Below are positions 38,073-62,550 of a stretch of DNA of 64,000 nt, piece by piece. The position numbers and the translations under genes were made by a program. Numbering within the stretch: position 1 is the stretch's first letter; each line of letters opens with the position of its first letter. Below the pieces are notes generated by a model, which saw nothing but the letters and a program-made list of their open reading frames with translations, was not told the origin of the DNA and did no database searches. Source of the DNA: Eubacteriales bacterium (GTDB lineage: Bacteria; Bacillota; Clostridia; Oscillospirales; CAG-272); the NCBI GenBank assembly GCA_045540515.1, contig JAZQHJ010000173.1, positions 6,347 to 70,346 on the forward strand. The letters are read 5' to 3'.

Positions 38073-38087
38073 AATTTCTCCCAAAAA

Positions 38088-41008: not shown

Positions 41009-41022
41009 AAAGGAGATACAAA

Positions 41023-42207: not shown

Positions 42208-42226
42208 AGTATTAGGAGAATAAAAA

Positions 42227-43648: not shown

Positions 43649-43688
43649 AATAAAAAATTAAAATTCATTATAATGGAGGAAAAAGAAA

Positions 43689-44468: not shown

Positions 44469-44490
44469 TTAAAATAACGCAAATCAGACC

Positions 44491-44516
44491 TGTCCGCCGT
44501 CGTAGGACGGTGGACA
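44491..44516 (+). other. strong intra-operon RNA hairpin (11-bp stem, GTAG loop), no T-run
   Basis: TGTCCGCCGTC gtag GACGGTGGACA (one G-U pair), located 23 nt after the vWA stop codon. Confidence 0.5.
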
Positions 44517-44635
44517 AGCTCTGGTTACAAAAAACAAATGACCTTAAAAGTCCAAGCACGGCTTGGCAAAAAAGAAATAAATTTGAAAACAGCTTGGCAT
44601 ATGCCAATAACATAAAATTAGGAAAAGGAGCTAAA

Positions 44636-45358: not shown

Positions 45359-45403
45359 TTTTTAGTAGCATTAAATTAAATACATATACAGCAAGGAGAC
45401 AAA

Positions 45404-46108: not shown

Positions 46109-46140
46109 ACAGAAAGAAAATATATAAGGAGAAAATAAAT

Positions 46141-47244
46141 ATGGAAAAGGGATTTTTTATATCAAGAAGAGGTGGCTCTCACGCAAGCTCAGGAACACCA
46201 ATGCAGGATTATTCATCAGCGGTAAGATGCGATGATTATAGCATTGCAATAGTTTGTGATGGACACGGATCAGCCAAGCATTTCAGAAGTCATATCGGCT
46301 CACGTCTTGCAACCGAGGTAATACAGGAAAATCTAATAGATTTTGTAAATGCGTATCCAAATTATGAAAGCGCGAGTAAGGATTTTGGCAAAAAGGCTGA
46401 AAGATTAAAGCTAAATATTTTAAATACATGGATTTCCAAAATTGATGAGGATATAGACAAAACTCCTTTTACCGAGGAAGAGCTTAAAAAGGGTGTAGGC
46501 AACAAGGGTGTTGATTATTTAAGCTACTATACCAAGGTTACACCATATGGAACAACTGCTCTTGCGGTGCTTTTGACCAAGGATTATTATGTAGCGCTTA
46601 TGCTAGGTGATGGACTTATTGCAAAAATGGCTCCTTATACTGAAGCGACCGAGGAAACCTTTGAGGGAAAGCGTGAAATTAAAAGAGGCGACCCGATTGA
46701 CTCTATGTGCAACGAGGATGCGGCATATAAAATGCACGTAAAGTGCGTTCCTGTATCAGAGGACGAAAAGGGACTTGCATTTGCAATTTCCTCTGACGGA
46801 TATTGTGAAGCAGGCGTTTTTCCAACCTGGAAAATGCTAAATTGGCCAAAGAAATACATAGTAAGATATGCAGTTAGAGGTATTGACGAGGCAATAGAAG
46901 CAATTACACCTCAATTTGACGAGATTTCAGCAAAAAGCGAAGCAGAGGACGACATTTCAATGGCGATTGCTTGCAATGAACCAGAGTTATATATAGAATG
47001 GGCAAAGGCGGAGAGAGAAAAGGCTCTTAAAGCAAAGGCAGAGGCAGAGAGAAAAGCCGAGGAAGAGAAAAAGGCAGAGGCTGAAAAGGAAGCAACGGCG
47101 AAAGCAGAGACAGAAGCAAAGGAAGAAGAAAAGGCTCAAAGCACAGAGCAAGAAAGCGCCCAAGCACCTGATGAAAAGCCAGAGCAGGAAAATAAAGAAA
47201 CCGAGCAGACCCCTGAAAAGGAAGAGGATGCTCCAAAGGAATAA
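46141..47244 (+). CDS. PP2C-family Ser/Thr phosphatase with E/K/A-rich low-complexity tail
   Basis: MQDY...AIVCDGHGSAKH, LMLGDGLI and AISSDGYCE blocks. The last ~90 aa are KAEAERKAEEEKKAEAEKE... Confidence 0.75.
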   Translation: MEKGFFISRRGGSHASSGTPMQDYSSAVRCDDYSIAIVCDGHGSAKHFRSHIGSRLATEVIQENLIDFVNAYPNYESASKDFGKKAERLKLNILNTWISKIDEDIDKTPFTEEELKKGVGNKGVDYLSYYTKVTPYGTTALAVLLTKDYYVALMLGDGLIAKMAPYTEATEETFEGKREIKRGDPIDSMCNEDAAYKMHVKCVPVSEDEKGLAFAISSDGYCEAGVFPTWKMLNWPKKYIVRYAVRGIDEAIEAITPQFDEISAKSEAEDDISMAIACNEPELYIEWAKAEREKALKAKAEAERKAEEEKKAEAEKEATAKAETEAKEEEKAQSTEQESAQAPDEKPEQENKETEQTPEKEEDAPKE

Positions 47245-47279
47245 TAATGGAGAAATAAGCCAAGAGCTTAATTAGAAAT

Positions 47280-47801
47280 ATGGAGCATTTATTCATTTTA
47301 GTTGACACCTCGGGAAGCGTTGTGCTTGAAGGGATTCAAAAGATTGGACAAATTAACGATTTTTTAAGAGATGTGATAATTGCAACAATAGACCATCTTA
47401 AATCAATTCATGTTATTTTGTATTCTGATTTGCCAAGGGTTTATTTTAGAAAATCCGACGGAAGGGGATTCGGAGAAATCAAGGACTATGAATTTACAGG
47501 ACGCTCTAATCTTGGAAAGGCATATGCATTAACTAAAAAAATAATGGATGAGCAATCAGTTGATTGCTCAAATTCCATTATTGCCATAATATCGGACGGA
47601 GAGGCAACCGATAATTACAAAAAGGAGCTTATGCTCCTTGACCCAGACCAGAAATCAAAGAGGATTGCAGTGGGCTTGGGTGCAGAGCAAGATACACTTG
47701 AAGACCATATAAACGAAACAGGTGTAATTATATCCGATATAACAAGCGATAATGCAAAACGAGAGTTTATAGGCAACACAATCAATACAATTACTATATA
47801 A
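47280..47801 (+). CDS. short vWA domain protein (intact MIDAS)
   Basis: FILVDTSGSV, GRSNLGKAY and AIISDGEATDN. The protein is 173 aa. Confidence 0.7.
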   Translation: MEHLFILVDTSGSVVLEGIQKIGQINDFLRDVIIATIDHLKSIHVILYSDLPRVYFRKSDGRGFGEIKDYEFTGRSNLGKAYALTKKIMDEQSVDCSNSIIAIISDGEATDNYKKELMLLDPDQKSKRIAVGLGAEQDTLEDHINETGVIISDITSDNAKREFIGNTINTITI

Positions 47802-47813
47802 AAGAGGATAAAA

Positions 47814-50800
47814 ATGAACATATCAGCAAAAGATCTGGCAAAATTTTTACAGAATTCCGTTTCCTTTGATTTTTCAAAGGAAACAATTTTGTCGTACAAT
47901 AAAATACGCAGAAGATATGATGATTTTTATGCCTTGGAGAATAAAAGAGCATTTATTGCCTTGCTTAATGATATAATCGGTGATGACAATCAGTTGGTTG
48001 ATATTTTTGCTGACCTTCAAGCAGCCGATAGAGGATTCAGATTTTTTGCAAACGAGGAAAATAGGCAGTCAAGAAGCGTATTAAACGCAATCGGCTATTT
48101 TTTAAGCGACAGACGATTTGATTATCACAAAAACGATATTGCAAAGGTATATTTTGCAATAAACACATGGCTCTGCTTCTACGGTGCAAATGAGGTTTCA
48201 CTTCACTGGACCGTTTGTCCTCTATGCACAAAAAAGATTGTATTTGGACAATGCAGTAATTTAAGCTGTAAGAAGAAGGAAGAGGAATTTATTCCTATAA
48301 TGCTTGAGCTTCAAGCAATTTTAAAGGCAGAAAACGAAGGCAAGGAAATGCCTTTGCCAAAATATTTTAAAACGATTGAGCCAAATGCCGAGTTTGGCTT
48401 TTACAAAACAAGCATTGAGCAAAAAAGGAACGAAAGAAAGGCGCAACAGGAGCAACAGGAGCAGAAGGACAAAAAGAAAGCAATTGAGCTTGCAGAAAAG
48501 GAGCTTGTAAAGATTTCTGAAAAGGCAAGGCTCGAATCCGAAAAGGAAGTTCCTGATTTTGATTCAATTTTTAAGGAGCTTACAACAAATCCTATAATCC
48601 TTGAAGCACTAAAATACAAGGACAAGAGCTTTGAGAAAAAGCTCAATGCCTTAAAGGAGCAAATTCAAGGCTATAAGGACAGCGTTTATTCAAAAAAGGA
48701 GCAAGAAAGACAAAAGGCAATAGCTATAAATGACTTTAAAGCTTTTTCTCTCCTAAAAGCAAAGCTGGATGCAGAGCTTGCAAACAAGGGAATTGAGCTC
48801 CCTCTTGAAGAGGTTAGAGAGCTTTTGGCAAAGGCAGATGAGGCATTTAATAAGGTTGACACTGCAAATACAAGATACCCAAGCCTGTATTCAAAGTCCG
48901 AGAAGGAAGTCATTAAGGACTACAAGGAAAGCACCAAGCCAAAAACCGAAAAGAGAATCGAGGAAAGAGTCGAGGAGGAACGCCTTGACGACGCCAAGGA
49001 CAAGCTTGTAATAGCTATTGGTGAAATTGAAAAGGAATACGAAAGATGCAAGAATCTCAAGGACGGCGCAAGTGAGCTTTGGGAAAAATTTATAAACGAG
49101 ATTGAGAAAAACGAGGAATATATTGACTGTCGTGAGGTTCCAGCGTGGGATGCTGTTTATTTGGAAATAACAGGACCAATAAAGCAGAAGCTTTCAAATT
49201 TGCTTACAGAGGAAACCGAACAAAAGAAAAAGCACTTTATGTCAGCAGTTGTTCCTTTAAAGGATAAGGTAAGCAAGGCAAAGCCAGCGGACAAGTCTGC
49301 AAATGCTTTATCTAACGAGCTTAAAGCAATAAAAGCTAACAAATACTATTCGAGCATAAAGCAAAGTGCTGAATACAAGAAGGAAATTGCTTGGCTTGAA
49401 AACAAAATAAACGACCTACAAGCAAAGGAAAGGGCATATTTCAAGAGAAGAAAGACAGCCGTTTCAGCAACATCTATAACTATTTTGAGCCTTGCTATAA
49501 TTTTGTACTCACTGCTTGCGTACATTATTCCAATTTCAAGGGTTCAAATCAAATCAACAAAAGCCTCGACTAATAATTATTCAGTTGAAAGCTTAAAGGA
49601 CAACGAAACTGAATTTTTGATAATAGACGAGTATTTACCACATTTCTTTTTACAAAAAAGTAAAAGGGTTTCAAGCATTTCAAGCGAAGCCTTTAAGAAT
49701 AATGAATATCTTAAAAAATGCACACTTCCTGCTTCAATTGAAAGAATAGGAGAGGGAGCATTTGATGGATGCACAAGCCTTGGTCTAGTAGTGCTACAAT
49801 CCAATGAGCCACCAAAAATTGAGAGTAGCTCGTTTGATAATTGTAACACAATTTTTGTCGTGCCAGAGGAAAGCTACTCTGCGTATATGCAAAGCGAGGA
49901 CTGGGCAAGACACAGAACAAAAATTTTCCCAAATTACAACAACCAAGACGGCTTTGGCACTGTTATGTTCGATTCAAATGGTGGAAGCAGTGTTGAAACA
50001 ATGAAAACAATTCAGCTAAATGCACAGGTAAGCACACTTCCAACCCCAACCAAGGAGGGCTACGCCTTTGCAGGCTGGTATTACATTGATGCAGAGGGCA
50101 AGCAAGCCGTAATGAGCAATGATGATGCAGTGTTTTCAACAAGCACAAAGCTTGTTGCCAAGTGGAAGCAGGGCGTATATTCAGTAAGCTTTGAGCAAAA
50201 CGATGGCACAGGAAAAGCAACAAGCGCTGACTATACATATGGTGAAAGATGGGAGTCATTCCCACAGCCTACAAGGGATGGATATACCTTTGAGGGCTGG
50301 TATATAAATGACAAGAAGCTATTAGAGACATCACTTGTTAGCATTACAGGAAATGCAACTGCAATAGCAAAATGGACTGCAAACGAATACAGTGTTAGCT
50401 TTGATTATGCAGGCGGAGAGTCTTCAACAGAGCAGACAACGGTAATTTTTGATGGAAAATACGGAGAGCTTCCACAATCAACAAAAGTGGGCTATACCTT
50501 TGGTGGTTGGAGCTATGAAAATGAAAGCATTAGTTCAAGCACAGTAGTTAAAGCACCAAAAAATCATACGCTTGTTGCAAAATGGATTCCAAACACCTAC
50601 ACAATCCGTTATGAGGCTATGGGTGGAATAATAAGCGAAGAGACTATAATCTGCGAGTACGATAAGCCAGTGACACTCAGCGCTCCGCAAAGAGCTGGTT
50701 ATACCTTTGTTAACTGGGAGTGCGACGGAGTAACCTATCTTGCAGGAGACGAGGTTCTCAATCTTGCAAGCACAAGTGCTGAGTTTGTTTTTGAGGCTAA

Positions 50801-53800
50801 TTGGAAAGCAAACACCTATAAAATTAAATACGATTCAGACGGAGGAAATGTAAACAAGCAGGAGCAGGATTGCATATATGATGTAGATGTCGTGCTTGAA
50901 ACACCGACAAGAAATGGCTATAAGTTCCTTTACTGGTCATATGGCTCTTACAAGCTGTATGGTGGAGAGGTTGCAAGCAATCTTTCATCCACACAAGGGG
51001 ATGAAATACAGTTAAAGGCAATATGGAGAGCAATTACATATACAATTGAATATGATGCAAATGGTGGAGAGCAGGTAAACAATAGCGTTCTATGTACATA
51101 TGATGTTCCTACAATACTAGAAACTCCAACAAGAGATGGCTACACCTTCAAGCATTGGACACACCAAGGGACAATTTATGAGGCTGGACAAAGCATTGTA
51201 AATCTTACAAGCGACGATGAAGGAAAAATCAAGCTTGTTGCCGTTTGGGTCGCTAAGGAAAATGTTATCACCTTTAATCCAAATGGTGGTACAGGAGAAA
51301 TGACCGACGTTAATATACTTTCCGATGGTAGTGTACAATTACCACTTAATGCATATGCAAAAAATGGCTATACCTTTATAGGTTGGAGCACACAGAAAAA
51401 TGGTAGCGTTGAATATAAAGACGGAGATACCTTTGAGGCAGGAACAGAGTCAAGCTATACTCTTTATGCCGTTTGGGAGGCAAATGAAAACAAGCTAATT
51501 CTTTATGCAAATAACGGTACACAGGAGAGCATTGAGCTAACTGTTAAAACAGCACAGACAATAACAATACCTAAAAACACCTTCACACGTGCAGGATATA
51601 CCTTTACAGGCTGGGAGCTGGCAGATGGAACAGGTGCATCCTACAAGGATGAGGCAGAGATAGTAATGCCTGCAAGTGAGGAATCATACCTTGTTGCAAT
51701 ATGGACGGCAAATGATAACACCATTATTTTTGATGCCAATGGAGGAAGTGGAGAAGCAGTTGAACAGCATATCAAGACTGATGAAAATAAGCCACTTATT
51801 GCTTGTAGCTATACAAGAAAGGGTTATAAATTTATAGGCTGGTCAAGGACTAAGGACGGAGGAGTAAACTATTTAGATGGCGCAGGCTATCAAATGGATG
51901 CAAGCGCAACAACAACTCTTTATGCGGTTTGGGAAATCGTAAATTACGATATTACCTATGAGCTAAGCGGAGCAGAAAATTCAAGCTCAAATCCAACAAG
52001 CTATAACATAAGCTCAGGCACAATTGTACTTGAAGCTCCAAGCAAGGCTGGTTATACCTTTGATGGATGGTTCCTTGATGAATTAGCAACTCAACCAATT
52101 ACTCAAATTGATTCAACAAGGCTTGAAGCAATTACTCTTTATGCTAAATTCACAGTAAATACAAATAAGCTTCACTTTAATCCTATGGGAGCAAGTGGAG
52201 AAATGGCAACTCTTGATGTTCAAACGGGCAAGATAGTTACCTTGCCAAGCTGTACATTTACAAAGCCGGGTTACTATTTTGTAGGTTGGAGCACAGAAAA
52301 TGGCGGAGACGTGTCGTATTTTGCTTCCTCATCGTACGAAATGGGAACAGAGGCTGAATATACTCTTTATGCCGTTTGGGATAAGGCTGTATATACCATA
52401 AGCTATGAAACAAACGGTGGAACAAATTCAACCTTAAATCCATCCGAGTACCACATAGAAAGTGCAGAAATTATTTTGAAATCACCTACAAAGGCAGGCT
52501 ATACCTTTGGAGGCTGGTATTCAGAATCAACAATGACAACTGATAAGGTGGAAAAAATATCAGCAGGAAGCACGGGCAATATAACCCTATATGCAAGGTG
52601 GATTGCAAATACAAATACACTCCACTTTAACGCAAACGGCGGAACGGGAGCAATGAATGACGTTAAGCTTCAAACTGGCGAGGAAATGAAAGCATTGCCA
52701 AGCGCTACCTTTGAAAAGGTCGGCTACAACTTTGCAGGTTGGGCACTAACACCTAATGGAAGCTCAATTTATGCAAACGGAGCAAGCTTTGAAATGGGCA
52801 CCGATGCTGAAATGACACTCTATGCAGTATGGACAGACTTTTCATATACTATCTCATATAATTTGGACGGAGGAATAAACAATCAACAAAACCCAAGTGG
52901 CTATGGTGTGGAAACCAACACAATAACACTTGCATCTCCAACCAAGGCAGGCTACACCTTTATGGGATGGTATTCTGAGGATTCCCTTGAAAACAAGATA
53001 ACACAAATTCCAAAGGGAAGCACAGGAAATATTGTGCTTTATGCAAGCTGGGAAGCAAACGAAAATACAATAATATTCAATCCAAATGGCGCAACTGGCT
53101 CAATGAGTAGCATTAAGCTGAAAACAGGCGAGTCGATAAAGCTACCAAGAAATACCTTTAAGAAGGAGGGCCATACCTTTAAGGGCTGGGCAACCACTGC
53201 AAATGGAGCAGTTGCTTATGCTGATGGCTCTGCTTATGTAATGGGTACTGGCTCAACCTATACGCTATATGCAGTATGGCAGGCGAATTCATATGTTGTA
53301 ACATATGCAGACCATTCAAAGACAGTTATCTATGGTCAGTCATACGGAACGCTTTCAAAGCCAAGCACAGAGCCAACAGGATATAAGTTCTCACATTGGA
53401 CATACAATGGAGCAACAATAAGTGCTGGAACAACTGTAACAACTGCGTCAAGCCATACCCTAACACCAGTATGGGTAGCACGTACATATACAGTTTATTA
53501 CGGACCATATTCAAAGACAGTAACATACGATCAGCCATATGGAGAATTTAACACAGTATCAAAGACAGGATATACATTCAATAATTGGAGCTATAATGGA
53601 GCAACAATAACCTCAAATACAATTGTTAAAACGGCATCAGACCATACCTTAAAGGACAACTGGGTAGTAAACTATTACACGATTTCAATTTCTGAAAGCG
53701 GAGCATGGGCAACAGTTGAGGTTAATGGAGTTACATATTCCTCTGAAACTACAATTTCAGCTCCATACAATGCAAGCATAAAGGTTACATTTGGTGCAAA

Positions 53801-54608
53801 TAGCAATTATCAAAATCCTACATGCTCGTACAATGGAACTGCAATATCAAGTGGCTATACAACAACTATGCCAGCAGGCAACGTAAGCATAAGTGCAAGC
53901 GCAACAGAAATTCCATCAGGTGGTAGTTGCTTTGCAAGAGGAACACTGATTGCACTAGGAAATGGCAGAGTGGTTAAGGTCGAGGACCTAAATGTTGGAG
54001 ATGAAATCTTATCATTTGACCACGCAACAGGAAAATTTGTAGCTCAAAGGGTTGGATTTATCTTTAAGGCATTTGAAAGTGTTGAAATAAACGAGCTATT
54101 CTTTGAAAATGGTAGCTCAATTACCTTAACTAACTATGGCGGACACGGTATGTATGATGCTACTCTTGGAGAATATGTACTAATAACACCAGAAAACGTA
54201 AATCAATTTATCGGGCACGAGTTTGCAGTAATGAATGGTGAAAAAATAGGTACAACAAGGCTTGAAGCATATGATTACAGAATTGCATATGTTGAGCGAT
54301 ATGACGTTGTAACCCACAACACCCTTAACTGCATAGCGAATGGATTTATTACATGCTCTGACGTGCTTGTAAGCATTTGCAATGTATTTGAATTTACAAG
54401 CAATTTTACGTATGACCTTGAAAAAATGGAAAACGATATTAACACCTACGGCTTATACACCTATGAGGAGTGGAGTGAATATCTAACCGAGGAGGAATTT
54501 AATTCCTTTGGAGGTGCATACTTCAAGGTAGCTGTTGGCAAGGGCTTAATTACAAGGGATGAAATATTACAGCTCCTTTGGTTCTTGCACAGCTGGAACA
54601 ACATTTAA
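47814..54608 (+). CDS. 2264-aa single-pass membrane protein: cytoplasmic Zn-ribbon + coiled coil, TM helix, BspA-type LRR, 17 Listeria/Bacteroides (Flg_new-type) repeats, beta-rich spacer, C-terminal Hint domain
   Basis: CPLCTKK...CSNLSC ribbon (48215-48269). K/E-rich coiled coil at about aa 170-540. TM helix AVSATSITILSLAIILYSLLAYIIPI (49458-49535). LRR IERIGEGAFDGCTSL. GY(T/K)FxGW occurs 17 times. CFARGTLIALGNG...THNTLNCIANGFITCS is the Hint domain. Confidence 0.8.
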   Translation: MNISAKDLAKFLQNSVSFDFSKETILSYNKIRRRYDDFYALENKRAFIALLNDIIGDDNQLVDIFADLQAADRGFRFFANEENRQSRSVLNAIGYFLSDRRFDYHKNDIAKVYFAINTWLCFYGANEVSLHWTVCPLCTKKIVFGQCSNLSCKKKEEEFIPIMLELQAILKAENEGKEMPLPKYFKTIEPNAEFGFYKTSIEQKRNERKAQQEQQEQKDKKKAIELAEKELVKISEKARLESEKEVPDFDSIFKELTTNPIILEALKYKDKSFEKKLNALKEQIQGYKDSVYSKKEQERQKAIAINDFKAFSLLKAKLDAELANKGIELPLEEVRELLAKADEAFNKVDTANTRYPSLYSKSEKEVIKDYKESTKPKTEKRIEERVEEERLDDAKDKLVIAIGEIEKEYERCKNLKDGASELWEKFINEIEKNEEYIDCREVPAWDAVYLEITGPIKQKLSNLLTEETEQKKKHFMSAVVPLKDKVSKAKPADKSANALSNELKAIKANKYYSSIKQSAEYKKEIAWLENKINDLQAKERAYFKRRKTAVSATSITILSLAIILYSLLAYIIPISRVQIKSTKASTNNYSVESLKDNETEFLIIDEYLPHFFLQKSKRVSSISSEAFKNNEYLKKCTLPASIERIGEGAFDGCTSLGLVVLQSNEPPKIESSSFDNCNTIFVVPEESYSAYMQSEDWARHRTKIFPNYNNQDGFGTVMFDSNGGSSVETMKTIQLNAQVSTLPTPTKEGYAFAGWYYIDAEGKQAVMSNDDAVFSTSTKLVAKWKQGVYSVSFEQNDGTGKATSADYTYGERWESFPQPTRDGYTFEGWYINDKKLLETSLVSITGNATAIAKWTANEYSVSFDYAGGESSTEQTTVIFDGKYGELPQSTKVGYTFGGWSYENESISSSTVVKAPKNHTLVAKWIPNTYTIRYEAMGGIISEETIICEYDKPVTLSAPQRAGYTFVNWECDGVTYLAGDEVLNLASTSAEFVFEANWKANTYKIKYDSDGGNVNKQEQDCIYDVDVVLETPTRNGYKFLYWSYGSYKLYGGEVASNLSSTQGDEIQLKAIWRAITYTIEYDANGGEQVNNSVLCTYDVPTILETPTRDGYTFKHWTHQGTIYEAGQSIVNLTSDDEGKIKLVAVWVAKENVITFNPNGGTGEMTDVNILSDGSVQLPLNAYAKNGYTFIGWSTQKNGSVEYKDGDTFEAGTESSYTLYAVWEANENKLILYANNGTQESIELTVKTAQTITIPKNTFTRAGYTFTGWELADGTGASYKDEAEIVMPASEESYLVAIWTANDNTIIFDANGGSGEAVEQHIKTDENKPLIACSYTRKGYKFIGWSRTKDGGVNYLDGAGYQMDASATTTLYAVWEIVNYDITYELSGAENSSSNPTSYNISSGTIVLEAPSKAGYTFDGWFLDELATQPITQIDSTRLEAITLYAKFTVNTNKLHFNPMGASGEMATLDVQTGKIVTLPSCTFTKPGYYFVGWSTENGGDVSYFASSSYEMGTEAEYTLYAVWDKAVYTISYETNGGTNSTLNPSEYHIESAEIILKSPTKAGYTFGGWYSESTMTTDKVEKISAGSTGNITLYARWIANTNTLHFNANGGTGAMNDVKLQTGEEMKALPSATFEKVGYNFAGWALTPNGSSIYANGASFEMGTDAEMTLYAVWTDFSYTISYNLDGGINNQQNPSGYGVETNTITLASPTKAGYTFMGWYSEDSLENKITQIPKGSTGNIVLYASWEANENTIIFNPNGATGSMSSIKLKTGESIKLPRNTFKKEGHTFKGWATTANGAVAYADGSAYVMGTGSTYTLYAVWQANSYVVTYADHSKTVIYGQSYGTLSKPSTEPTGYKFSHWTYNGATISAGTTVTTASSHTLTPVWVARTYTVYYGPYSKTVTYDQPYGEFNTVSKTGYTFNNWSYNGATITSNTIVKTASDHTLKDNWVVNYYTISISESGAWATVEVNGVTYSSETTISAPYNASIKVTFGANSNYQNPTCSYNGTAISSGYTTTMPAGNVSISASATEIPSGGSCFARGTLIALGNGRVVKVEDLNVGDEILSFDHATGKFVAQRVGFIFKAFESVEINELFFENGSSITLTNYGGHGMYDATLGEYVLITPENVNQFIGHEFAVMNGEKIGTTRLEAYDYRIAYVERYDVVTHNTLNCIANGFITCSDVLVSICNVFEFTSNFTYDLEKMENDINTYGLYTYEEWSEYLTEEEFNSFGGAYFKVAVGKGLITRDEILQLLWFLHSWNNI
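49956..53666 (+). repeat. in-frame tandem protein-repeat array (17 units of ~63-75 aa, four subtypes)
   Basis: The repeats fall into four subtypes, which I label A-D. Reading along the gene, the order is D x6 (aa 715-1146), A x3 (1150-1375), alternating B-A x3 (1376-1822) and C x2 (1826-1951). Each unit carries a GY(T/K/N/Y)F.(G/N/H/Y)W core. Confidence 0.8.
53928..54356 (+). other. Hint (Hedgehog/intein-like, BIL-type) domain
   Basis: It starts at Cys2039 (CFARGTLI, the intein block A pattern) and contains VVTHNTLNCIANGF (block F-like). It ends ITCS instead of the canonical terminal HN. An 83-aa tail follows. Confidence 0.7.
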
Positions 54609-54615
54609 AAGAAAG

Positions 54616-54645
54616 GTAAGTGGCAGAATAAGCTCTGCCACTTAC
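54616..54645 (+). other. perfect 12-bp stem hairpin between the giant gene and the ATPase gene (possible attenuator/stabiliser)
   Basis: GTAAGTGGCAGA ataagc TCTGCCACTTAC, followed by TAAAATT, which is only a weak T-tract. Confidence 0.5.
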
Positions 54646-54667
54646 TAAAATTGCAAGAGGGGAAAAT

Positions 54668-57600
54668 ATGCTAATAAATGAATTTATTAAGGCAGGAGAG
54701 GTATGGGATGCGTATAAGCAATCATATCGTTCTCAAAAAGAAAGCTACAAAAAAAGCTACGAGACTCAAAAAGCGCAAAAGATAAACGAGCAAGGTACAC
54801 TTTATAAAAAGATTAATGACCTTAAATTAAAAATCAATCAAAATGAAGAAAGCCTTCGTGCGCTTGTTTCAGAAACCTTTGAAAGCGTTGCATTTGAAAG
54901 GATAAAAAGGTCAGTGAGCGCTTTTGGCATCACCTCAAGCAAAAGGGACAGAAGCATTGATATTGAAAACGTCAAGAGTGAGTTAAAAAGGGCACTGCTA
55001 GAAAAGAAGGCTTGCGAGGCAAGAGTCCCAAAAATTCAAGATGAAATAAACGAGCTTGACAAGGCATATCAAGAAAAAGATGCTAAGCTTGATAATGACT
55101 ATCAAAGCAAAAAGCAAGAAACAGAGAAAAAGGTTATTGCAAAATATGATGCCGAGACAAAAAGATGCGTTCGTAAATATAGCTCTAAAACAACAGTTCC
55201 AGAGCCACCAAGCCTACCACCTAAAAAGGTTATTCTTGGAACTCAAAGAGCGGTGGTTTCAACGCTTAACGATGTTTTACCAGGTCCAATATATATGCCA
55301 TATGAGGTGGATGTAAAGGACAATGGAAGCTTTGCAATAAACGTAAGCCAAAATGCACTAAATAGTAGAATCACAGAAAGCATAATGGTAGGAATGCTTC
55401 TTAAATACATAGATTCATTTCCTGCAAAAAAGCTTCATATAGGTGTATTTAGTCCAACACTTGCATCCTTTAACCATTTGAATGCTCTTTACAACGCAAT
55501 GAAGAGTGAGGGCTGTACAGTGCTTCCAGAGGGCATTAGCTCGGCAAATAGAATAGATGAGCTGTTTAATGCAATTGATGTAAAGGCAAAGGGAATAAGG
55601 GATGATAAAATTTTACGCTCGGGACTTAGCAACATTTTTGACTTATATGATGCAGGTCAGACAACCGAGACCTTTACTGTCGTTGTTTTACATAATGCTC
55701 TATCAAGCCTAAATGATGAGGAAATAAACAAGCTTTCCAGCTTCATAAAGGGCTATCACAGATGTGGAGTTAGATTTATAATAGTAGAGGATTTTTCATC
55801 TATAAATACAAGAAGCTCAATAAATTATGCAAGAGCACTTGATGAAATAAAGCAGAGCTGTACAAGAATTGATATAAATGAAAAAGGAATAGCAAGGGTT
55901 GATGGTATAGAAACCTCTATGATGTCCTTAATGCCTGATTTTGATGAAATTAAGGTTTATAACTACTGTATTGATTATCTTAAAAAGGAGAAAAAATCAG
56001 CATACGTCACCTACGAAAGCATTGGCTTTGGCAAGGAGACACCTGACGCTGATGAATATACAAGAATACTAATACCAGTTGCAACAACTGGCTCTGGGGC
56101 TTGGCATATGAAGTTTGCTTGCGAAATCAACGAATCAAAGCTGGCTCCGATTGCAAATCTTATACTTGGAGAGTCTGGCTCGGGAAAATCCTGCTTGATT
56201 GAATCAATGATATATAATGCTTCAATGAAATATTCTCCTGATGATTTAATTTTCCATTTTCTTGATTTTAAACAGAATTCAACAGCGGGCTTATATCTTA
56301 ATGAAACATACAAAATTCCCCATATAAAGGTGCTAACGGCAGATAGCAAGCCAGAAGAGGCAAGCTTTATTCTTGATAATATATTAGAAGAAAACATAAA
56401 AAGAATAAAGACATTTTCCGATCTTGGAGAAAAGTACAAAACAGCAATAAAAAATATAGCACAATATAATAAGTTTATTGTAACTAACGGCGTACAGATT
56501 TCAAAAATGCCACGACTTATTATAATAGTGGACGAGTGCCAATATCTTTTTGCATCTGACGCACTTGTAGATAAGCTGACTTCAATAGTAAGACTAGGAA
56601 GAAGCCAAGGTATTCACATAGTTCTAGCGACACAAACACTAAACTCAACCATGAGAAGCTGGGTATCTAAATTTGTTAATGGATTATATGTTTATTCATC
56701 TCCACAAGAGGATATAGAGGCAATTTTGGATAAGCAATATCATAAGCGTGTTAACACCGAGGCTCCTGTGGGATCGTTTCAATGCTTTGCTTCGGATAAT
56801 GGAGGAAGCTTGTGTACAAAGATAACCCCTGCCTTCTATGGAGATCCACCAGAGCCTATAAGCTATTCAAACGCAATAAGAAGCAAATGGAGTAGCTATC
56901 CATGCGACACTGTTGTAATAGGCGAAAAGAGAGATCTTTATATAAATAACGAGGATTATCAAAAAATCCTTGGCAAGCTTGATAATTATAAAATTGCCTT
57001 TGGAGAAAATTATCAAAACAGAGAGCCATTTTATTTTGAGTTGAAGCAAAAAATAGGACAAGGTGTTGATAAAATAGGTTCAGTTGTCCTTATTGGAGAC
57101 AATGATGTTATTGCATCAAGTCTTTGTACGTCTGTTTTGTTAAGTGCAAAAAGAAACAAAACAAAGGTATATGCAATAGATATGTCAAGGTCACAAACAC
57201 TTGCAACAATAAAAAGCAAATGCTTTGATTCTGATTCATCAATCTTTGTAGGAAAGGGCGCTGATTATAACTCTACCATTGCAAAGGTTTATATGGAATA
57301 TGAAGCAAGATGCGCTGAGTTCAACAATGACCCGTCTGCAAAATTTGAGCCCATTATTTTAATGATAAATTCTGCTGACCGTATAAATGATTATAATAAC
57401 AATACATTGTATGAAATTAAGGCCGAGCAAAAGGAGAAAAAATCCAGCGCTGATTCAAATAATCCGTGCATAGGCATTCCTGGATATGCTCCGCTTGATG
57501 ATTATATAAGTGATGAGGAAAGCGATACAAATAATGAGTATTCTGCAAAGATAAAGGTAAGGGACGCTCTTTACGAAATTCTTAAAAAAGGTGCAGATTA

Positions 57601-57871
57601 TGGAATAGTTGTGTGCCTGTGGGCAAACGACAATGAAGAAATTAAAGCAAAGCAAACGGGCTTTATCAAGCTAGCGTTTAACGCAATCCCTTCAAACATC
57701 TCATCATATTTTGATAATTCGTTCTATGAAAGAATGACTGATGGTATGAGTCAGACCATGGCATTTGTTAACCATTACGATGCTACTGTGGGAAGATTGA
57801 ACAAGCGTATCAGGGTATATCAATATGATTTGGATGACGAGGATTTAATTAAATTTATTAGAACATTATAA
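54668..57871 (+). CDS. FtsK/SpoIIIE-family ATPase, three P-loop-like modules (only the middle one intact), N-terminal coiled coil, no TM or FHA domain
   Basis: Walker A GESGSGKS (aa 501-508), Walker B IIIVDECQ (aa ~618-625) and LGRSQGIHIVLATQ. The flanking modules are degenerate (FTVVVLHN...GVRFIIVED and SVVLIGDND...PIILMINSADR). Confidence 0.8.
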   Translation: MLINEFIKAGEVWDAYKQSYRSQKESYKKSYETQKAQKINEQGTLYKKINDLKLKINQNEESLRALVSETFESVAFERIKRSVSAFGITSSKRDRSIDIENVKSELKRALLEKKACEARVPKIQDEINELDKAYQEKDAKLDNDYQSKKQETEKKVIAKYDAETKRCVRKYSSKTTVPEPPSLPPKKVILGTQRAVVSTLNDVLPGPIYMPYEVDVKDNGSFAINVSQNALNSRITESIMVGMLLKYIDSFPAKKLHIGVFSPTLASFNHLNALYNAMKSEGCTVLPEGISSANRIDELFNAIDVKAKGIRDDKILRSGLSNIFDLYDAGQTTETFTVVVLHNALSSLNDEEINKLSSFIKGYHRCGVRFIIVEDFSSINTRSSINYARALDEIKQSCTRIDINEKGIARVDGIETSMMSLMPDFDEIKVYNYCIDYLKKEKKSAYVTYESIGFGKETPDADEYTRILIPVATTGSGAWHMKFACEINESKLAPIANLILGESGSGKSCLIESMIYNASMKYSPDDLIFHFLDFKQNSTAGLYLNETYKIPHIKVLTADSKPEEASFILDNILEENIKRIKTFSDLGEKYKTAIKNIAQYNKFIVTNGVQISKMPRLIIIVDECQYLFASDALVDKLTSIVRLGRSQGIHIVLATQTLNSTMRSWVSKFVNGLYVYSSPQEDIEAILDKQYHKRVNTEAPVGSFQCFASDNGGSLCTKITPAFYGDPPEPISYSNAIRSKWSSYPCDTVVIGEKRDLYINNEDYQKILGKLDNYKIAFGENYQNREPFYFELKQKIGQGVDKIGSVVLIGDNDVIASSLCTSVLLSAKRNKTKVYAIDMSRSQTLATIKSKCFDSDSSIFVGKGADYNSTIAKVYMEYEARCAEFNNDPSAKFEPIILMINSADRINDYNNNTLYEIKAEQKEKKSSADSNNPCIGIPGYAPLDDYISDEESDTNNEYSAKIKVRDALYEILKKGADYGIVVCLWANDNEEIKAKQTGFIKLAFNAIPSNISSYFDNSFYERMTDGMSQTMAFVNHYDATVGRLNKRIRVYQYDLDDEDLIKFIRTL

Positions 57872-57883
57872 AGGAGAACTTTT

Positions 57884-58171
57884 ATGAAGCTTCCAGAAAG
57901 AATAGAAGAAATAAATATGGATCCCGAAGCTGTAAGGGAGCAAATCAAAAAAATATCTGGAGAATTTGAAAAAATAGGCGAAATTAGCGAAAGAACGAAA
58001 AACAATCTAGTTGCGCTTGAGGGTAACTTTAAAAGTGGAAACTATATAAGAGCAGCAGAGGCAATAGGATCTGTAAGAGCTAAAATGACAAAAGCAGAGG
58101 TGGAATTTGATGAGCTTATTCGCTCTTGCGACTCCCTTGTAAAGAAAGTTGAAGAAATAACAAAAAGATAA
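57884..58171 (+). CDS. WXG100-like small helical protein (FKSGN variant), paralog of 58454-58741
   Basis: 95 aa and predicted all-helical. The central turn LEGNFKSGNYIRAAEAIGS sits where WXG100 proteins carry W-x-G. The gene lies immediately downstream of the FtsK-like ATPase. Confidence 0.5.
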   Translation: MKLPERIEEINMDPEAVREQIKKISGEFEKIGEISERTKNNLVALEGNFKSGNYIRAAEAIGSVRAKMTKAEVEFDELIRSCDSLVKKVEEITKR

Positions 58172-58182
58172 GGAGGCTAATT

Positions 58183-58440
58183 ATGGCACAGGGACAAATC
58201 ATAGAAACAAAGGGCATATTGCTTCAAGTTATAAAGGATTTAACAAAATATAAGGATGAAGTTGATAAAATAATGAAATCAATTCTTCAAAAGACCAATG
58301 AGCTAAATAACGATTGGAAGGATGCTCAATACACCAAGTTTCAGGCTTATATTGAGGATATTAAAAAAGGGATCGATAATGATTTGAAAGAGCTTGATGA
58401 ATGTGTTGCAGTATTAAAGAAAAGAGCGGAGCTCTATTAA
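58183..58440 (+). CDS. WXG100-like small helical protein (WKD variant)
   Basis: 85 aa. The central NNDWKDAQYTKFQAYIEDI resembles the W-x-G-x-A-x-x-F core with Gly replaced by Asp. Confidence 0.5.
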   Translation: MAQGQIIETKGILLQVIKDLTKYKDEVDKIMKSILQKTNELNNDWKDAQYTKFQAYIEDIKKGIDNDLKELDECVAVLKKRAELY

Positions 58441-58453
58441 TTAAGGACTAAAA

Positions 58454-58741
58454 ATGGGAAATATGGATGCATATGTAGATACCAACGCATTGAGAGATGG
58501 TGGTTCAAGTCTTGTGCAAAAAGCAGAAGGAATGCTTGAAATAACAAATCAACTCAAAAATAATCTTAACGCAATTTCTAATTATTTTAAAAGTGGAAAT
58601 CAAGAGCGTGCAGCAGAGGCAGTTGGAAATTCAGCCGTCGTTGTAAAAGACGTAGCTGATAAGCTGGAAATGCTTAACAAAAAGATGAATGAGCTTGCAT
58701 GCTGTATTGACGAATACGAGGAATGCACCTATGGCAAGTAA
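58454..58741 (+). CDS. WXG100-like small helical protein (FKSGN variant)
   Basis: 95 aa. The central ISNYFKSGNQERAAEAVGNS is paralogous to 57884-58171. The tail reads CCIDEYEECTYGK. Confidence 0.5.
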   Translation: MGNMDAYVDTNALRDGGSSLVQKAEGMLEITNQLKNNLNAISNYFKSGNQERAAEAVGNSAVVVKDVADKLEMLNKKMNELACCIDEYEECTYGK

Positions 58742-58759
58742 TAATAAGAGGTGAATCTT

Positions 58760-59320
58760 ATGGATATACAAAACCAAAATTTTATAAGCTTTATAAACCT
58801 AGCAGAGCAGAAATTTGAGGCAAAGTATAAGGAATATATTGAAAAGAAAAGAAACGACGAAGCAGAGGCAAACCGTAAGCTAGGCGAAATATCCAATTTG
58901 CTAAATCAGCTATCAAATCACAAAAGCATGATAAAAAATCCTATCCTTGCCCAAAGATTTCTTGATATTTTGAATAGAATTAGCCAAACAAATATCAGCG
59001 GAACCCCAAGCTATGCAAAGCTTGTATATTATTTAAATCGCTTAAATGATATTAAGCATGATGAATTTGCTTTAAAGAACAATCCTAGCTATTGCAATAC
59101 TGTTTTGACAAAAATAGCACAGCAATATATACTCATATACAGAAAGCTTGAAAGCGACAAAAAATCAATTGAAGTGCAATTTAAGGCTGAGTCTGATAGG
59201 CTTTTTAATGAATACAAGAATGCTATGCAAGAAAACGCCTATGCTGTTGTTAAAAGAGCAAGACAATATGCAGGAGTCGAGGCAGATGCATTAATAAAGC
59301 AAATTGAAGATAGCATATGA
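58760..59320 (+). CDS. hypothetical helical protein (186 aa)
   Basis: ATG at 58760 follows AGAGGTG. The protein is K/E/N-rich and helical, with no recognised family. Confidence 0.4.
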   Translation: MDIQNQNFISFINLAEQKFEAKYKEYIEKKRNDEAEANRKLGEISNLLNQLSNHKSMIKNPILAQRFLDILNRISQTNISGTPSYAKLVYYLNRLNDIKHDEFALKNNPSYCNTVLTKIAQQYILIYRKLESDKKSIEVQFKAESDRLFNEYKNAMQENAYAVVKRARQYAGVEADALIKQIEDSI

Positions 59321-59328
59321 GGTGAAAA

Positions 59329-59601
59329 ATGGCTAAAAATAAAGTAAAAAGCACGGTTCAAAACGCGAGCCGACGTGTTGATTATGATGCCAACACACAG
59401 GTCGCACTTGCAAGCTATTTTGGCGCACCAAGCATGGTGGATGAAGCAACTGTAAAGGAATTTGAAAAGGATTTTAATGCTGATAACAAATATACAAGGG
59501 GAACACATTTCAAGGAATTTATTTCAAGAAATCGCAGACCAATTACAATATCTGCAATAGTGGTTGCCGTAGTGTCTGTTCTTCTTGTGATTATATTCTA
59601 G
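59329..59601 (+). CDS. tail-anchored small membrane protein
   Basis: 90 aa with a single C-terminal TM segment ITISAIVVAVVSVLLVIIF. RBS is GAGGTG. Confidence 0.45.
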   Translation: MAKNKVKSTVQNASRRVDYDANTQVALASYFGAPSMVDEATVKEFEKDFNADNKYTRGTHFKEFISRNRRPITISAIVVAVVSVLLVIIF

Positions 59602-59602
59602 T

Positions 59603-59971
59603 ATGTGGAACAGGAACAAAATGGAACAAATAAACCCAAAAAGTCAAGGCAAGAGAACGGCAATGATAACGCTTATATGCGTTGTGCTAATGCTTATAAT
59701 GTCAGCCCTTGCATATATTCTTGGCATAAAGGCACAGGAGCTTATTCGCTTCGGGAAAAGCCCCACAGCCTTTGCAATAGCAACAGTGGTTGTAGCAATT
59801 TTGGCATTTATTTTAGTGGCACTGGCACTTTTCTTTGGCATAAAAATGCTAAGAATGTTAAATGGCAGAGAAATGGGCTATTATATAATTATCAGCATAT
59901 ATTTGATTTTTATTGCATTTATGCTATTGCTTTCAATAAGTGGCATAATGATTGCAATTCCGCTAATATAA
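59603..59971 (+). CDS. small polytopic membrane protein (3-4 TM)
   Basis: Hydrophobic segments MITLICVVLMLIMSALAYILGI, AFAIATVVVAILAFILVALALFFGI and YYIIISIYLIFIAFMLLLSISGIMIAIPLI. The true start may be ATG 59621. Confidence 0.45.
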   Translation: MWNRNKMEQINPKSQGKRTAMITLICVVLMLIMSALAYILGIKAQELIRFGKSPTAFAIATVVVAILAFILVALALFFGIKMLRMLNGREMGYYIIISIYLIFIAFMLLLSISGIMIAIPLI

Positions 59972-62005: not shown

Positions 62006-62136
62006 AAAAATGCTCCTTTAAGTATATTACAAGGTAATTGTATCATATTTATTAGAATAAAACAAGCAAAAATATTGACAAGATTAAAACAAATATGTTA
62101 AAATCTAACTGTATTAAATTTAAAAGGAGAAATATT

Positions 62137-62550
62137 ATGAACGTACAATCAGTTATCAATTATTGCTCAGGTCTTTCATACCGTCAGCTTGAAAACTTCG
62201 CAGGTGAAAACTATCTTGAGGTTTACAACTATATGAAGGCAAACTATGACGGAGAAAAGGTAAACACACTTCTTATCGGCTCAATCTTTACATGCGTTGC
62301 AGCTGACGGAAAGTTTAATGATGCAGAATGGCAATTCATTTCAAGCTTCATTGGTGGTTACAGCTATGATGAAGCATATGCAGTTGCAGGTGAGTTTTAT
62401 AATGATGAGGCTCAGGACATCGTTGCTCAGCTTGCTAGCCTATTCCCAAGCCACATAAGAGATGCTTTCATCAGCCTTTGTCTTGCAGTTCTTTGTGTTG
62501 ACGGCAGAGTTGCAGATTACGAAAGATACTTCCTTAACAAGATTTTATAA
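62137..62550 (+). CDS. TerB-like domain protein (137 aa)
   Basis: ATG at 62137 follows AAAGGAGA. It carries paired motifs VAADGKFNDAEWQFI and LCVDGRVADYERYFL (DG-x5-E twice). Confidence 0.6.
   Translation: MNVQSVINYCSGLSYRQLENFAGENYLEVYNYMKANYDGEKVNTLLIGSIFTCVAADGKFNDAEWQFISSFIGGYSYDEAYAVAGEFYNDEAQDIVAQLASLFPSHIRDAFISLCLAVLCVDGRVADYERYFLNKIL

Follow-up and report, generated by a model that had tools for sequence, protein, structure and literature searches.

The gene at positions 54668–57871 of the window (the whole stretch of 64,000 nucleotides analysed here) raises the question of what an FtsK/SpoIIIE ATPase does if it has the three-module layout of a T7SS translocase, but neither the TM helices nor the FHA domains of such a protein. 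The initial annotation described it in these terms, and its account of motifs, modules and missing TM and FHA domains stands, but the architecture is not new. Comparative-genomic studies of 2012, 2016 and 2024 had already covered the ATPase family and its partner genes. In their work on CoCoNuT, Bell et al. (2024, eLife) described EssC homologues with three ATPase domains, of which the central one alone is active, with an N-terminal coiled coil and with no TM or FHA domains. These homologues adjoin two WXG100 genes, VWA genes and a TerY-P triad, and the ATPase/WXG100 cassettes are held in Type III-A CoCoNuT extensions. For stand-alone versions Bell et al. (2024) cite Anantharaman et al. (2012), who are credited with the stand-alone WXG100/FtsK operon both there and in PMC4978471. 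The latter regards the WxG/FtsK genes, with the paralogues HP0062/HP0066, as a minimal T7SS tied to TerY-P.

Judged by its sequence, the gene encodes one of the soluble EssC-like ATPases with a coiled-coil head that belong to HP0062-type WXG100/TerY-P cassettes. No new kind of system emerges from the window. Its contribution is a stand-alone case from Bacillota that has membrane and surface partners, and with it concrete candidates on which export by an anchor-less motor could be tested. The family is widespread (157 cluster representatives at E<1e-30, in Bacillota and Proteobacteria), and joins two themes usually studied apart, namely type VII-like WXG100 handling and TerY-P/VWA defence signalling. 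Membership of this soluble EssC-like family is the best explanation overall, and the reading that we prefer, at about even odds, is that helical effectors are exported or delivered to the surface by a membrane-recruited motor.

Domain structure of the ATPase

The 1067-aa protein has seven full-length homologues with 39–45% identity. No TM helix was predicted in it: the maximum Kyte–Doolittle 19-residue mean is 1.45, compared to 3.1–3.2 for the neighbouring small membrane proteins, and as controls the script does give TM segments for the EssC-like proteins P0008–P0011 and P0018. There is no Pfam match to FHA, nor to FtsK_gamma, which is carried (PF09397) by the true FtsK proteins P0012–P0015. 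The Pfam FtsK_SpoIIIE match is confined to aa 497–658 (2.8e-15). The protein has no Walker A or hhhhDE Walker B other than those of the middle module, GESGSGKS at aa 501–508 (nt 56168–56191) and IIIVDECQ at aa 618–625 (nt 56519–56542), and GRSQGIHIVLATQ lies at aa 644–656. The absence of TM and FHA and the restriction of intact motifs to the middle module are thus as first annotated. The TM-less relatives of 940–1400 aa (n=119) have one Walker A apiece, and across 62 diverse members of the family there is no variation at G501, G506, K507, D622 or E623. The features of the gene and its surroundings are listed in Table 1.

Table 1. Features of the ATPase gene and of the surrounding island (positions in the window; L001 and similar are related loci).
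Feature	Position	Strand	Evidence
Island start: 288-aa HELGH-motif protein and 394-aa protein	40142–42207	+	Homologues in L001
Ser/Thr kinase with C-terminal zinc ribbon (TerY-P kinase)	42227–43648	+	Pkinase 7.7e-14
Three TerY-like VWA genes (43689–44468, 44510–45358, 45404–46108)	43689–46108	+	Pfam VWA
PP2C phosphatase (TerY-P)	46141–47244	+	PP2C_2 3.7e-24
Fourth VWA protein, short, preceding giant protein and ATPase cassette	47280–47801	+	VWA_2 and VWA
2264-aa single-pass surface protein	47814–54608	+	Coiled coil, TM aa 548–579, LRR, 16 Flg_new repeats, Hint
EssC-like ATPase, predicted soluble	54668–57871	+	ATG start, 1067 aa, whole gene
N-terminal helical hairpin/coiled coil, aa 1–165	54668–55162	+	AF2 helices; profile matches coiled-coil PDB proteins
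Degenerate N-module, aa 186–470	55223–56077	+	FtsK/EssC-type fold without Walker A or catalytic Walker B
Active middle module, aa 471–760	56078–56947	+	Pfam FtsK_SpoIIIE; hhalign vs EssC D1
Degenerate C-module, aa 761–1067	56948–57871	+	Most like EssC/EccC D3
95-aa helical partner, WXG100-like without W motif, F-x-S-x-N-Y motif	57884–58171	+	Pfam WXG100 17 bits, below cut-off
85-aa WXG100-family protein, HP0062 type, W-K-D-x-Q-Y motif	58183–58440	+	Pfam WXG100 28.2 bits
95-aa paralogue of first small helical protein	58454–58741	+	Same cluster (C3) as 57884–58171
189-aa conserved soluble operon protein	58751–59320	+	Homologues in L001–L004 and L006–L009, same operon position
90-aa tail-anchored membrane protein, TM aa 69–90	59329–59601	+	TM prediction
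122-aa protein, three TM helices	59603–59971	+	Kept in L001 and L002 only

The AlphaFold2 (AF2) model has two long N-terminal helices (aa 3–86 and 96–164, pLDDT about 80–88), and the PDB matches to the N-terminus of the family profile are coiled coils, among them SMC, apolipoprotein and designed ones. A coiled coil of about 165 residues, rich in K, E and Q, had been proposed here. The coiled coil holds, but with K at 16%, E at 12% and Q at 6%, the hairpin is K/E-rich and not strongly Q-rich.

The three modules were compared with those of EssC using hhalign. The middle module matches D1 best (99.9%, E 5e-35), followed by D2 (99.7%). The N-module resembles D2 (95.7%) or D1 (80%) but not the DUF module (27%), and the C-module is closest to D3 (96.7%, E 3e-10), then D2 (94.1%). 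Where EssC/EccC have DUF plus D1–D3, the window ATPase has three modules, not four. In hmmsearch, the best match of the C-module is the D3 region of the EssC-like protein P0010 (residues 1272–1385, iE 8e-13). Within the 119-sequence family alignment, the N-module matches the middle module at 92.7% (E 4e-7, 177 columns), and the middle module matches the C-module at 83.5% (E 8e-6, 247 columns). A 9-sequence alignment gave no significant module-to-module signal, so that the homology signal of the degenerate modules rests on the deeper family. In these alignments FTVVVLHNALS of the N-module and PIILMINSADR of the C-module fall on the Walker B strand, SVVLIGDNDV of the C-module on the Walker A strand, and GVRFIIVEDF and GIVVCLWAN on GIHIVLATQ of the middle module.

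The whole ATPase model aligns with EccC D1–D3 (4nh0) in Foldseek, with E 1e-14 over 978 columns. The full-length model is weak in the active middle module (pLDDT 25–65), while pLDDT is about 80–87 across most of the C-module. Modelled alone, the N-module reaches a pTM of 0.76, and its top Foldseek matches are 4n1a, 4lya and the FtsK motor, that is, D2–D3 of EccC/EssC and the motor of FtsK. It is concluded that the flanking modules are genuine degenerate FtsK/EssC-type modules, not chance resemblances. The decayed P-loop modules and T7SS-like layout of the initial annotation are thus upheld, with its quoted strings at the expected positions, and the flanks have P-loop folds of the FtsK/EssC type. 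The module order is not a simple copy of D1–D2–D3; the active module is central although it is the most D1-like.

Relationship to EssC/EccC and FtsK

When the family profile was run against the PDB, the best match was EccC (177 bits), followed by YukB (129), EccC5 (120), FtsK (92) and TcpA (74). EssC/EccC (YukB) translocases are the best PDB and NCBIfam matches of the ATPase, and they share with it the tandem FtsK-type modules, the D3-like last module and the adjoining WXG100 genes. The NCBIfam scores are nevertheless far under the curated cut-offs (79.4 vs 509 bits for TIGR03924, 60.1 vs 778 for TIGR03928). The window ATPase differs in having no FHA domain, no TM helices where EssC/EccC have two N-terminal anchoring helices, no detectable DUF-type fourth module, and a single active module, in a central position, where EssC/EccC have two or three.

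The middle module branches deeply on its own in a neighbor-joining (NJ) tree, as a clade inside neither EssC D1 nor FtsK, with mean distances of 1.94 to FtsK motors and 2.13 to EssC D1. Affinity to T7SS therefore has to be drawn from the overall architecture, from the resemblance of the last module to D3 and from the WXG100 partners. Grouping with the DNA translocases of conjugative elements, which the initial annotation had named as a refuting outcome, is not borne out by the profile scores above, nor by the domain and gene content, in which FtsK gamma and conjugation genes are absent.

It might be argued that the protein instead serves a mobile element, as an FtsK-, TraB- or TcpA-type coupling protein or DNA translocase. 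This looks disfavoured, and we give it very little credence. FtsK/SpoIIIE and TcpA/TraB have the RecA-like motor fold, Walker A/B and GIH-x-x-x-ATQ in common with the middle module, which is about equally far from FtsK motors and EssC D1; its profile scores FtsK domains at 115–131 bits, and there are weak PADLOC matches to mad8 and SspH. However, the DNA translocases are anchored in the membrane, have only one motor module and a gamma domain for DNA recognition, and lack WXG100 partners, whereas the window ATPase has three tandem modules ending in a D3-like one, no TM helix and no FtsK gamma, and its family keeps a WXG100 partner in 28 loci. With the full-length family profile, FtsK and TcpA are outscored by T7SS ATPases, and the island was found to contain neither a relaxase or integrase nor any conjugation gene.

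The surrounding island and its relatives

The ATPase lies in a stand-alone 20-kb island (40142–59971), and no McrB, McrC or CnuH CoCoNuT genes occur across the whole 64-kb window. The 394-aa protein near the island start has an orthologue in L001. It is followed by a TerY-P set, in which the kinase has zinc-ribbon motifs CSGC at aa 339 and CPIC at aa 361 and no TM helix, and the first and third TerY-like VWA proteins have a DxSxS MIDAS near the N-terminus. The fourth VWA protein has DTSGS at aa 9 and orthologues in L006 and L007. The giant 2264-aa protein is present in these same two loci but absent from L001, and is therefore considered an accessory part.

Downstream of the ATPase, the 85-aa protein just exceeds the Pfam WXG100 cut-off of 27.3 bits. 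It has a homologue in the 28 related loci, and its profile matches HP0062 of Helicobacter pylori best (2gts, E 2e-9), then EsxA of Staphylococcus aureus. Homologues of the first 95-aa protein come after the ATPase in 13 loci. The cytoplasmic part of the 90-aa anchor is homologous to the N-terminus of a 632-aa TM and Flg_new protein in L003, and Bacillota family operons include single-pass membrane and surface-repeat proteins. No YukD/EsaB-, EssB- or EsaA-like components were found by Pfam or NCBIfam, and no polytopic membrane protein recurs throughout the family; both observations weigh against the preferred reading.

Given that no channel-forming component is conserved in the operon, and that the ATPase is soluble with a D3-like substrate-binding module, it could be an accessory or adaptor ATPase that feeds certain substrates to a canonical, membrane-bound EssC T7SS whose genes lie elsewhere in the genome. 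We consider this improbable. The family is also found in the Proteobacteria Caballeronia and H. pylori, in which we know of no canonical T7SS.

The Caballeronia example is embedded in CoCoNuT. The ATPase of plasmid pSBC2-5 is matched in tblastn at E 1e-18, in an operon reading VWA, WXG100, a 436-aa protein, two small proteins, FtsK-like, CARF, VWA, PP2C, kinase and DUF2357. It has a single Walker A; the N-module (iE 3e-13) and middle module (177 bits) match well, and the C-module match is weak (iE 2e-3). Its WXG100 protein matches the profile of the 85-aa family (E 4e-7). No TM protein is present in this cassette.

There are thus direct sequence links from the window to both this CoCoNuT-embedded example and HP0062. 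The cassettes of Bell et al. (2024) and Anantharaman et al. (2012) share with the window ATPase the N-terminal coiled coil, the three ATPase domains with the central one active, and the lack of TM and FHA domains. Also shared are TerY-like VWA genes, the triad of PP2C and kinase-zinc-ribbon, and adjoining WXG100-like proteins of two kinds, of which only one has the W motif; their coiled-coil protein fused to a nuclease-type effector is shared by the window's relatives. In contrast to the CoCoNuT cassettes, the window host is a probable Bacillota and not a proteobacterium, the giant Flg_new/LRR/Hint surface protein precedes the ATPase, small membrane proteins are present, and the effectors of relatives are WHH, LHH or HExxH, not D-ExK. 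There are four VWA genes before the ATPase and none after it, so that the published flanking by VWA applies on one side only.

A second comparison is with T7SSc (TscA–G; Garrett, Higginson and Palmer, 2024), which likewise has WXG100 proteins, an EssC-type ATPase, a cytoplasmic vWA, a Ser/Thr kinase and PPM/PP2C. However, TscC is membrane-bound with four NTPase domains, and the TscD kinase has a TM helix; the window kinase has a zinc ribbon in addition to lacking TM. No YukD-like TscB or EspG-like TscG was recognised by sequence at the window.

Proposed function

In canonical T7SS, EssC/EccC D3 is the domain that binds substrate signal peptides. In the preferred reading, the ATPase would form a hexamer, as in FtsK-family motors, and its D3-like C-module would capture complexes of WXG-like hairpins with coiled-coil effectors, whose handling would be driven by ATP hydrolysis in the middle module. 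The N-terminal coiled-coil hairpin may stand in for the TM and FHA region as a docking element, with the 90-aa anchor, the cytoplasmic coiled coil of the giant protein, or VWA/TerY-P proteins as candidate targets. The TerY-P kinase and phosphatase would switch the system on. The Bacillota locus would then be a T7SS-like pathway in which the motor is recruited to the membrane instead of embedded in it.

Membrane attachment by another protein, as put forward in the initial annotation, is reasonable at this locus but not general, since the Caballeronia cassette has no TM protein. For that reason the core of the family may work in the cytoplasm. The corresponding alternative is an abortive-infection module with no export, in which a TerY-P phosphorylation signal would cause the soluble hexamer to remodel or unfold complexes of WXG-like hairpins, coiled-coil effectors (nuclease or peptidase) and inhibitors, freeing a toxin inside the infected cell. 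The absence of any TM segment in the ATPase fits this, as do the GmrSD genes adjoining the operon in L019. Bell et al. (2024) describe TerY-P-like modules as stand-alone antiphage systems and, because there are no TM domains, expect a mechanism unlike that of EssC. On the other hand, the Bacillota operons have the single-pass membrane and surface-repeat proteins noted above, and the last module resembles the substrate-docking D3. To our knowledge, WXG100 proteins have been secreted T7SS substrates or co-substrates wherever tested. A variable toxin domain with a small immunity-like gene behind it is an arrangement of polymorphic toxins, and typical of toxins that are exported. We therefore regard purely cytoplasmic action as possible, though rather unlikely.

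The membrane and surface partners in Bacillota, together with the toxin–immunity pairs of relatives, argue for export in this branch. A more specific proposal, which we put forward only tentatively, is that the gut/rumen Bacillota cassette is a protein-export pathway of new architecture, in which a cytosolic EssC-like motor, controlled by TerY-P, would deliver polymorphic coiled-coil toxins (WHH, LHH, HExxH). Its hairpin would recruit it to single-pass membrane proteins, either the 90-aa anchor or Flg_new surface proteins with their cytoplasmic coiled coil. Were this so, type VII-like secretion would need no membrane-embedded ATPase.

The toxins are found in relatives. The family operon runs from the ATPase through the WXG-like pair and further small helical proteins to a protein of about 400–480 aa, which begins as a coiled coil and has a variable toxin domain (WHH, LHH or HExxH) at its C-terminus. 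Next comes a small immunity-like protein, and after it often a single-pass membrane protein. One related locus has a WHH nuclease followed by DUF6985, and another relative has an LHH toxin. In most relatives a coiled-coil toxin gene follows the small helical proteins, and nearly all related loci have such an effector. The window lacks it, which counts against the preferred reading, although the gene is cargo and not part of the ATPase. All that the window has of it is a stand-alone HELGH domain at 40142–41008, the 288-aa protein, which is homologous to the C-terminal domain of a 478-aa coiled-coil protein in L001.

Domain structure of the ATPase

The ATPase gene begins with ATG and encodes a protein of 1067 residues. 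Seven full-length homologues (39–45% identity) align with it from residue 1 to the end, and the gene model is therefore sound. Pfam matches FtsK_SpoIIIE at residues 497–658 only (E = 2.8e-15), within the middle one of three segments. This module carries the motifs listed in the initial annotation, namely GESGSGKS (501–508), IIIVDECQ (618–625) and GRSQGIHIVLATQ (644–656), and no Walker A or hhhhDE Walker B motif other than the first two occurs in the entire protein. G501, G506, K507, D622 and E623 are kept in 62 of 62 diverse relatives.

The protein was expected to lack the TM and FHA domains of T7SS translocases, and this is borne out. The Kyte–Doolittle maximum is 1.45, in a scan that picks up the TM helices of the 90-aa, 122-aa and giant proteins encoded nearby, as well as those of EssC and FtsK controls, and a search of the ATPase for FHA domains detected none. 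The N-terminus is a coiled coil, as proposed: in this region the family profile picks up SMC, apolipoproteins and designed coiled coils, and AlphaFold2 predicts a long helical hairpin (helices 3–86 and 96–164, pLDDT about 80–88).

The segments on either side of the middle module were suggested to be decayed P-loop modules. Alignments of 7–9 sequences gave hhalign probabilities of just 0.1–9.5% between modules, hmmsearch with the N- and C-modules from the thin alignment found no match among EssC-like proteins, and a PDB search with the 7-sequence N-module profile returned nothing relevant. Distant family members were missed by word-index searches. The module signal was obtained only with the deep family alignment from an exhaustive profile search, which gave 157 cluster representatives at E<1e-30; exactly one Walker A was found in 119 proteins of 940–1400 aa, nearly all of them without a TM segment. 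With this alignment each flanking module matches the middle one, and all three match ATPase domains of EssC. An alternative layout of DUF-D1-D2/3, in which the N-module would be the EccC/EssC DUF domain, was rejected, the DUF match being much poorer than those to D2 and D1.

Profile comparisons of the ATPase modules (EssC domain profiles derived from five EssC-like proteins)
Comparison	Probability	E value	Alignment
N-module (186–470) vs middle module	92.7%	4e-7	177 columns, in register
Middle module vs C-module (761–1067)	83.5%	8e-6	247 columns
N-module vs EssC D2	95.7%	9e-9	
N-module vs EssC D1	80%	1.4e-5	
N-module vs EssC DUF	27%	6.6e-4	
Middle module vs EssC D1	99.9%	5e-35	
Middle module vs EssC D2	99.7%	9e-26	
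C-module vs EssC D3	96.7%	3e-10	
C-module vs EssC D2	94%	1.2e-7	

The model of the full ATPase is mediocre overall (mean pLDDT 59.8), with good N- and C-modules. It aligns over 978 columns to T. curvata EccC, covering all three ATPase domains (4nh0, E = 1e-14), and also to crystal structures of EccC and EssC D2-D3. The N-module modelled alone (pLDDT 70.4, pTM 0.76) has its best matches in EccC D2-D3, EssC D2-D3, the FtsK motor and TcpA. Because profile comparisons and structure agree, the three-module layout is confirmed: both flanking segments have EssC/EccC-type matches rather than non-P-loop folds, and are degenerate P-loop modules.

Relation to T7SS translocases and DNA translocases

Searched as a single sequence, the ATPase finds EccC5 (2e-16), T. 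curvata EccC and YukB far above FtsK (2e-3). The top ranks in NCBIfam are EccCa and EssC, with scores far under the cut-offs. The deep family profile scores 177 bits with EccC, 129 with YukB and 120 with EccC5, against 92 with FtsK and 74 with TcpA. The ATPase was searched for a gamma domain, which is absent, and the island around its gene contains no conjugation or integration genes.

In a neighbor-joining (NJ) tree of ATPase modules, which carries no bootstrap values, the middle modules form a separate clade approximately equidistant from FtsK motors and EssC D1. They nest neither with FtsK nor with EssC D1, and the tree favors neither affinity. For this reason the T7SS affinity is based on the arrangement in tandem modules, on the D3-like C-module and on the partner proteins, and not on the active module alone.

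The island and its gene neighborhood

The ATPase gene lies in an island (40142–59971) that has a GH5 cellulase gene on one side and the gene for an FGGY kinase on the other. In the related locus L001 the island has the same flanks, with island proteins that are just 30–58% identical (BLASTP).

Features of the island, and one example from related locus L019
Feature	Position	Strand
288-aa protein, HELGH motif	40142–41008	+
394-aa protein	41023–42207	
Ser/Thr kinase, C-terminal zinc ribbon	42227–43648	
Three VWA proteins	43689–46108	
PP2C phosphatase	46141–47244	
Short VWA protein	47280–47801	
2264-aa single-pass surface protein (coiled coil, TM, LRR, 16 Flg_new repeats, Hint)	47814–54608	+
ATPase	54668–57871	+
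Three small helical proteins (95, 85 and 95 aa)	57884–58741	
189-aa protein	58751–59320	
90-aa tail-anchored protein	59329–59601	
122-aa protein, three TM helices	59603–59971	
Fused 95-aa/85-aa-type protein (example)	L019:9764–10372	

Judged by sequence, the zinc-ribbon kinase, PP2C phosphatase and VWA proteins are a TerY-P triad. No McrB/McrC-type gene was seen among the ORFs scanned (24.9–64 kb of the window), those upstream of the island being carbohydrate-active and housekeeping genes. PADLOC gave only generic kinase and FtsK domain matches (PD-T4-6, mad6, mad8 and SspH).

The operon was compared in 88 related loci. Of these, 28 encode a homologue of the 85-aa protein, and wherever seen in gene maps it lies just 3' of a family ATPase. 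This protein passes the Pfam WXG100 threshold and has a conserved center, W-(K/N)-D-x-Q-Y-x-x-F; the best match of its profile is H. pylori HP0062 (2gts, E = 2e-9), with S. aureus EsxA behind. The W motif is missing from the 95-aa type. The two types are apparently fused in one clade (L017–L030), where a single protein of about 202 aa is encoded immediately 3' of the ATPase.

Further 3', most loci encode two or three more small helical proteins, and a 400–480-aa protein whose N-terminus is a coiled coil and whose toxin-type C-terminal domain varies (a WHH nuclease in L019, LHH in L006, an HExxH domain in L001). In most loci a small protein follows, which is DUF6985 in L019. Often there is a single-pass membrane protein downstream, with 785 aa and PASTA in one clade and Flg_new proteins in another. 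The proteins of the former type (cluster C14, L019:13008–15365 and homologues, roughly 785 aa) combine a cytoplasmic part of about 350 residues with a single TM helix and a PASTA domain outside the cell. No kinase domain was detectable in them. The layout is reminiscent of PknB-type kinases and the EssB pseudokinase. Two GmrSD-type restriction genes stand directly 5' of the L019 operon (L019:286–3544), which indicates a defence-island context.

A coiled-coil effector was looked for in the window cassette and is absent. The 288-aa HELGH (HExxH) protein is homologous (30% identity over residues 47–257) to the C-terminal part of a coiled-coil protein of 478 aa in L001, which is encoded after the small helical proteins there. 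It therefore represents a probable metallopeptidase effector domain in stand-alone form. The giant 2264-aa protein has a zinc-ribbon-like CPLC...C...C (135–152), a long coiled coil (about 200–545) and one TM helix (548–579), followed by a BspA-type LRR, 16 Listeria-Bacteroides (Flg_new) repeats and, from around residue 2036, a C-terminal Hint module. The Hint module suggests that a short piece of the C-terminus is released by autoproteolysis. The giant protein is found in L006 (possibly split) and L007, and is absent from L001.

Just upstream of the island, an RNA ligase (PF09414) gene adjoins an HD plus AAA_33 (kinase-like) gene (36119–38084, −), and the two may be an RNA-repair pair. A gene for a TerB-domain protein (62095–62550, +) lies outside the island past the FGGY kinase gene, as it does in L001; TerY-P was originally described in a ter gene context.

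Relation to described systems and possible function

The ATPase has the same architecture as the EssC homologues associated with CoCoNuT restriction operons, which have three ATPase domains with the central one alone predicted to be active (Bell et al., 2024, PMC11090510, section 10). Those authors place the cassette between TerY-like VWA genes, adjoining the TerY-P triad, and in the passage concerned give credit to Anantharaman et al. (2012). A 2016 H. pylori pan-genome paper (PMC4978471) follows them in this: it regards the WxG and FtsK genes as a minimal T7SS that is linked to TerY-P, with HP0062/HP0066 as their widely conserved paralogues. The three-module layout pointed out in the initial annotation thus stands as an observation, and its interpretation is supported, while its novelty is lost. 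Given the match to this literature, it is concluded that the window ATPase is an addition to a known family described computationally, and not a new kind; we consider the family assignment highly probable. The 2020 conflict-systems paper from the Aravind laboratory has FtsK only as inactive effector domains, and has no bearing on this ATPase. T7SSc systems have kinase, vWA and PPM components (Garrett et al., 2024); their ATPases are all membrane-bound with four NTPase domains, whereas the window ATPase is soluble with three modules.

A tblastn search from the window ATPase found an FtsK-like gene on the Caballeronia plasmid pSBC2-5, whose annotated neighborhood is a Type III-A CoCoNuT extension. 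Its product, which contains only one Walker A, is recognized by the family profiles of the N-module and the middle module, and its WXG100 neighbor by the 85-aa profile. This cassette lacks any TM protein and stands inside a restriction operon; this argues for the main competing explanation, a purely cytoplasmic defence role. For the Bacillota branch, export or surface delivery rather than intracellular action is tentatively favored because the operon holds membrane and surface proteins and toxin-immunity-like pairs. The question of export or intracellular action is real, but not new.

Domain anatomy, homologies and conserved gene order are shown by the analysis. By analogy with FtsK-family and T7SS proteins, the ATPase would form a hexamer, in which the middle module would supply the power and the D3-like C-module would capture complexes of WXG-like proteins with coiled-coil effectors. 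The coiled-coil head would dock the motor, and phosphorylation by TerY-P would control it.

Other relatives

P0119, a protein of 2131 aa, starts with two TM helices and contains three modules with a Walker A; in the NJ tree, each of these modules sits within the clade of the soluble family. P0119 could represent a membrane-bound relative or an ancestral type of that family. The family profile search also found EssC-like proteins of about 2,800–3,000 aa (P0081, P0103, P0109, P0123, P0138 and P0168), with N-terminal TM helices and seven tandem Walker A motifs. More distant copies of the ATPase (31–35% identity, best tblastn segment) occur in two GTDB genomes, a goat caecum Clostridia MAG and an Erysipelotrichaceae MAG. 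The window itself is probably from a Bacillota genome of the gut or rumen. A family member (query residues 247–838, E = 2e-22) is also present on MT836827.1, a contig of 10.4 kb from human faeces that GenBank lists as 'Bacteriophage sp.'; either the contig is bacterial and wrongly assigned, or the copy may be carried by a phage.
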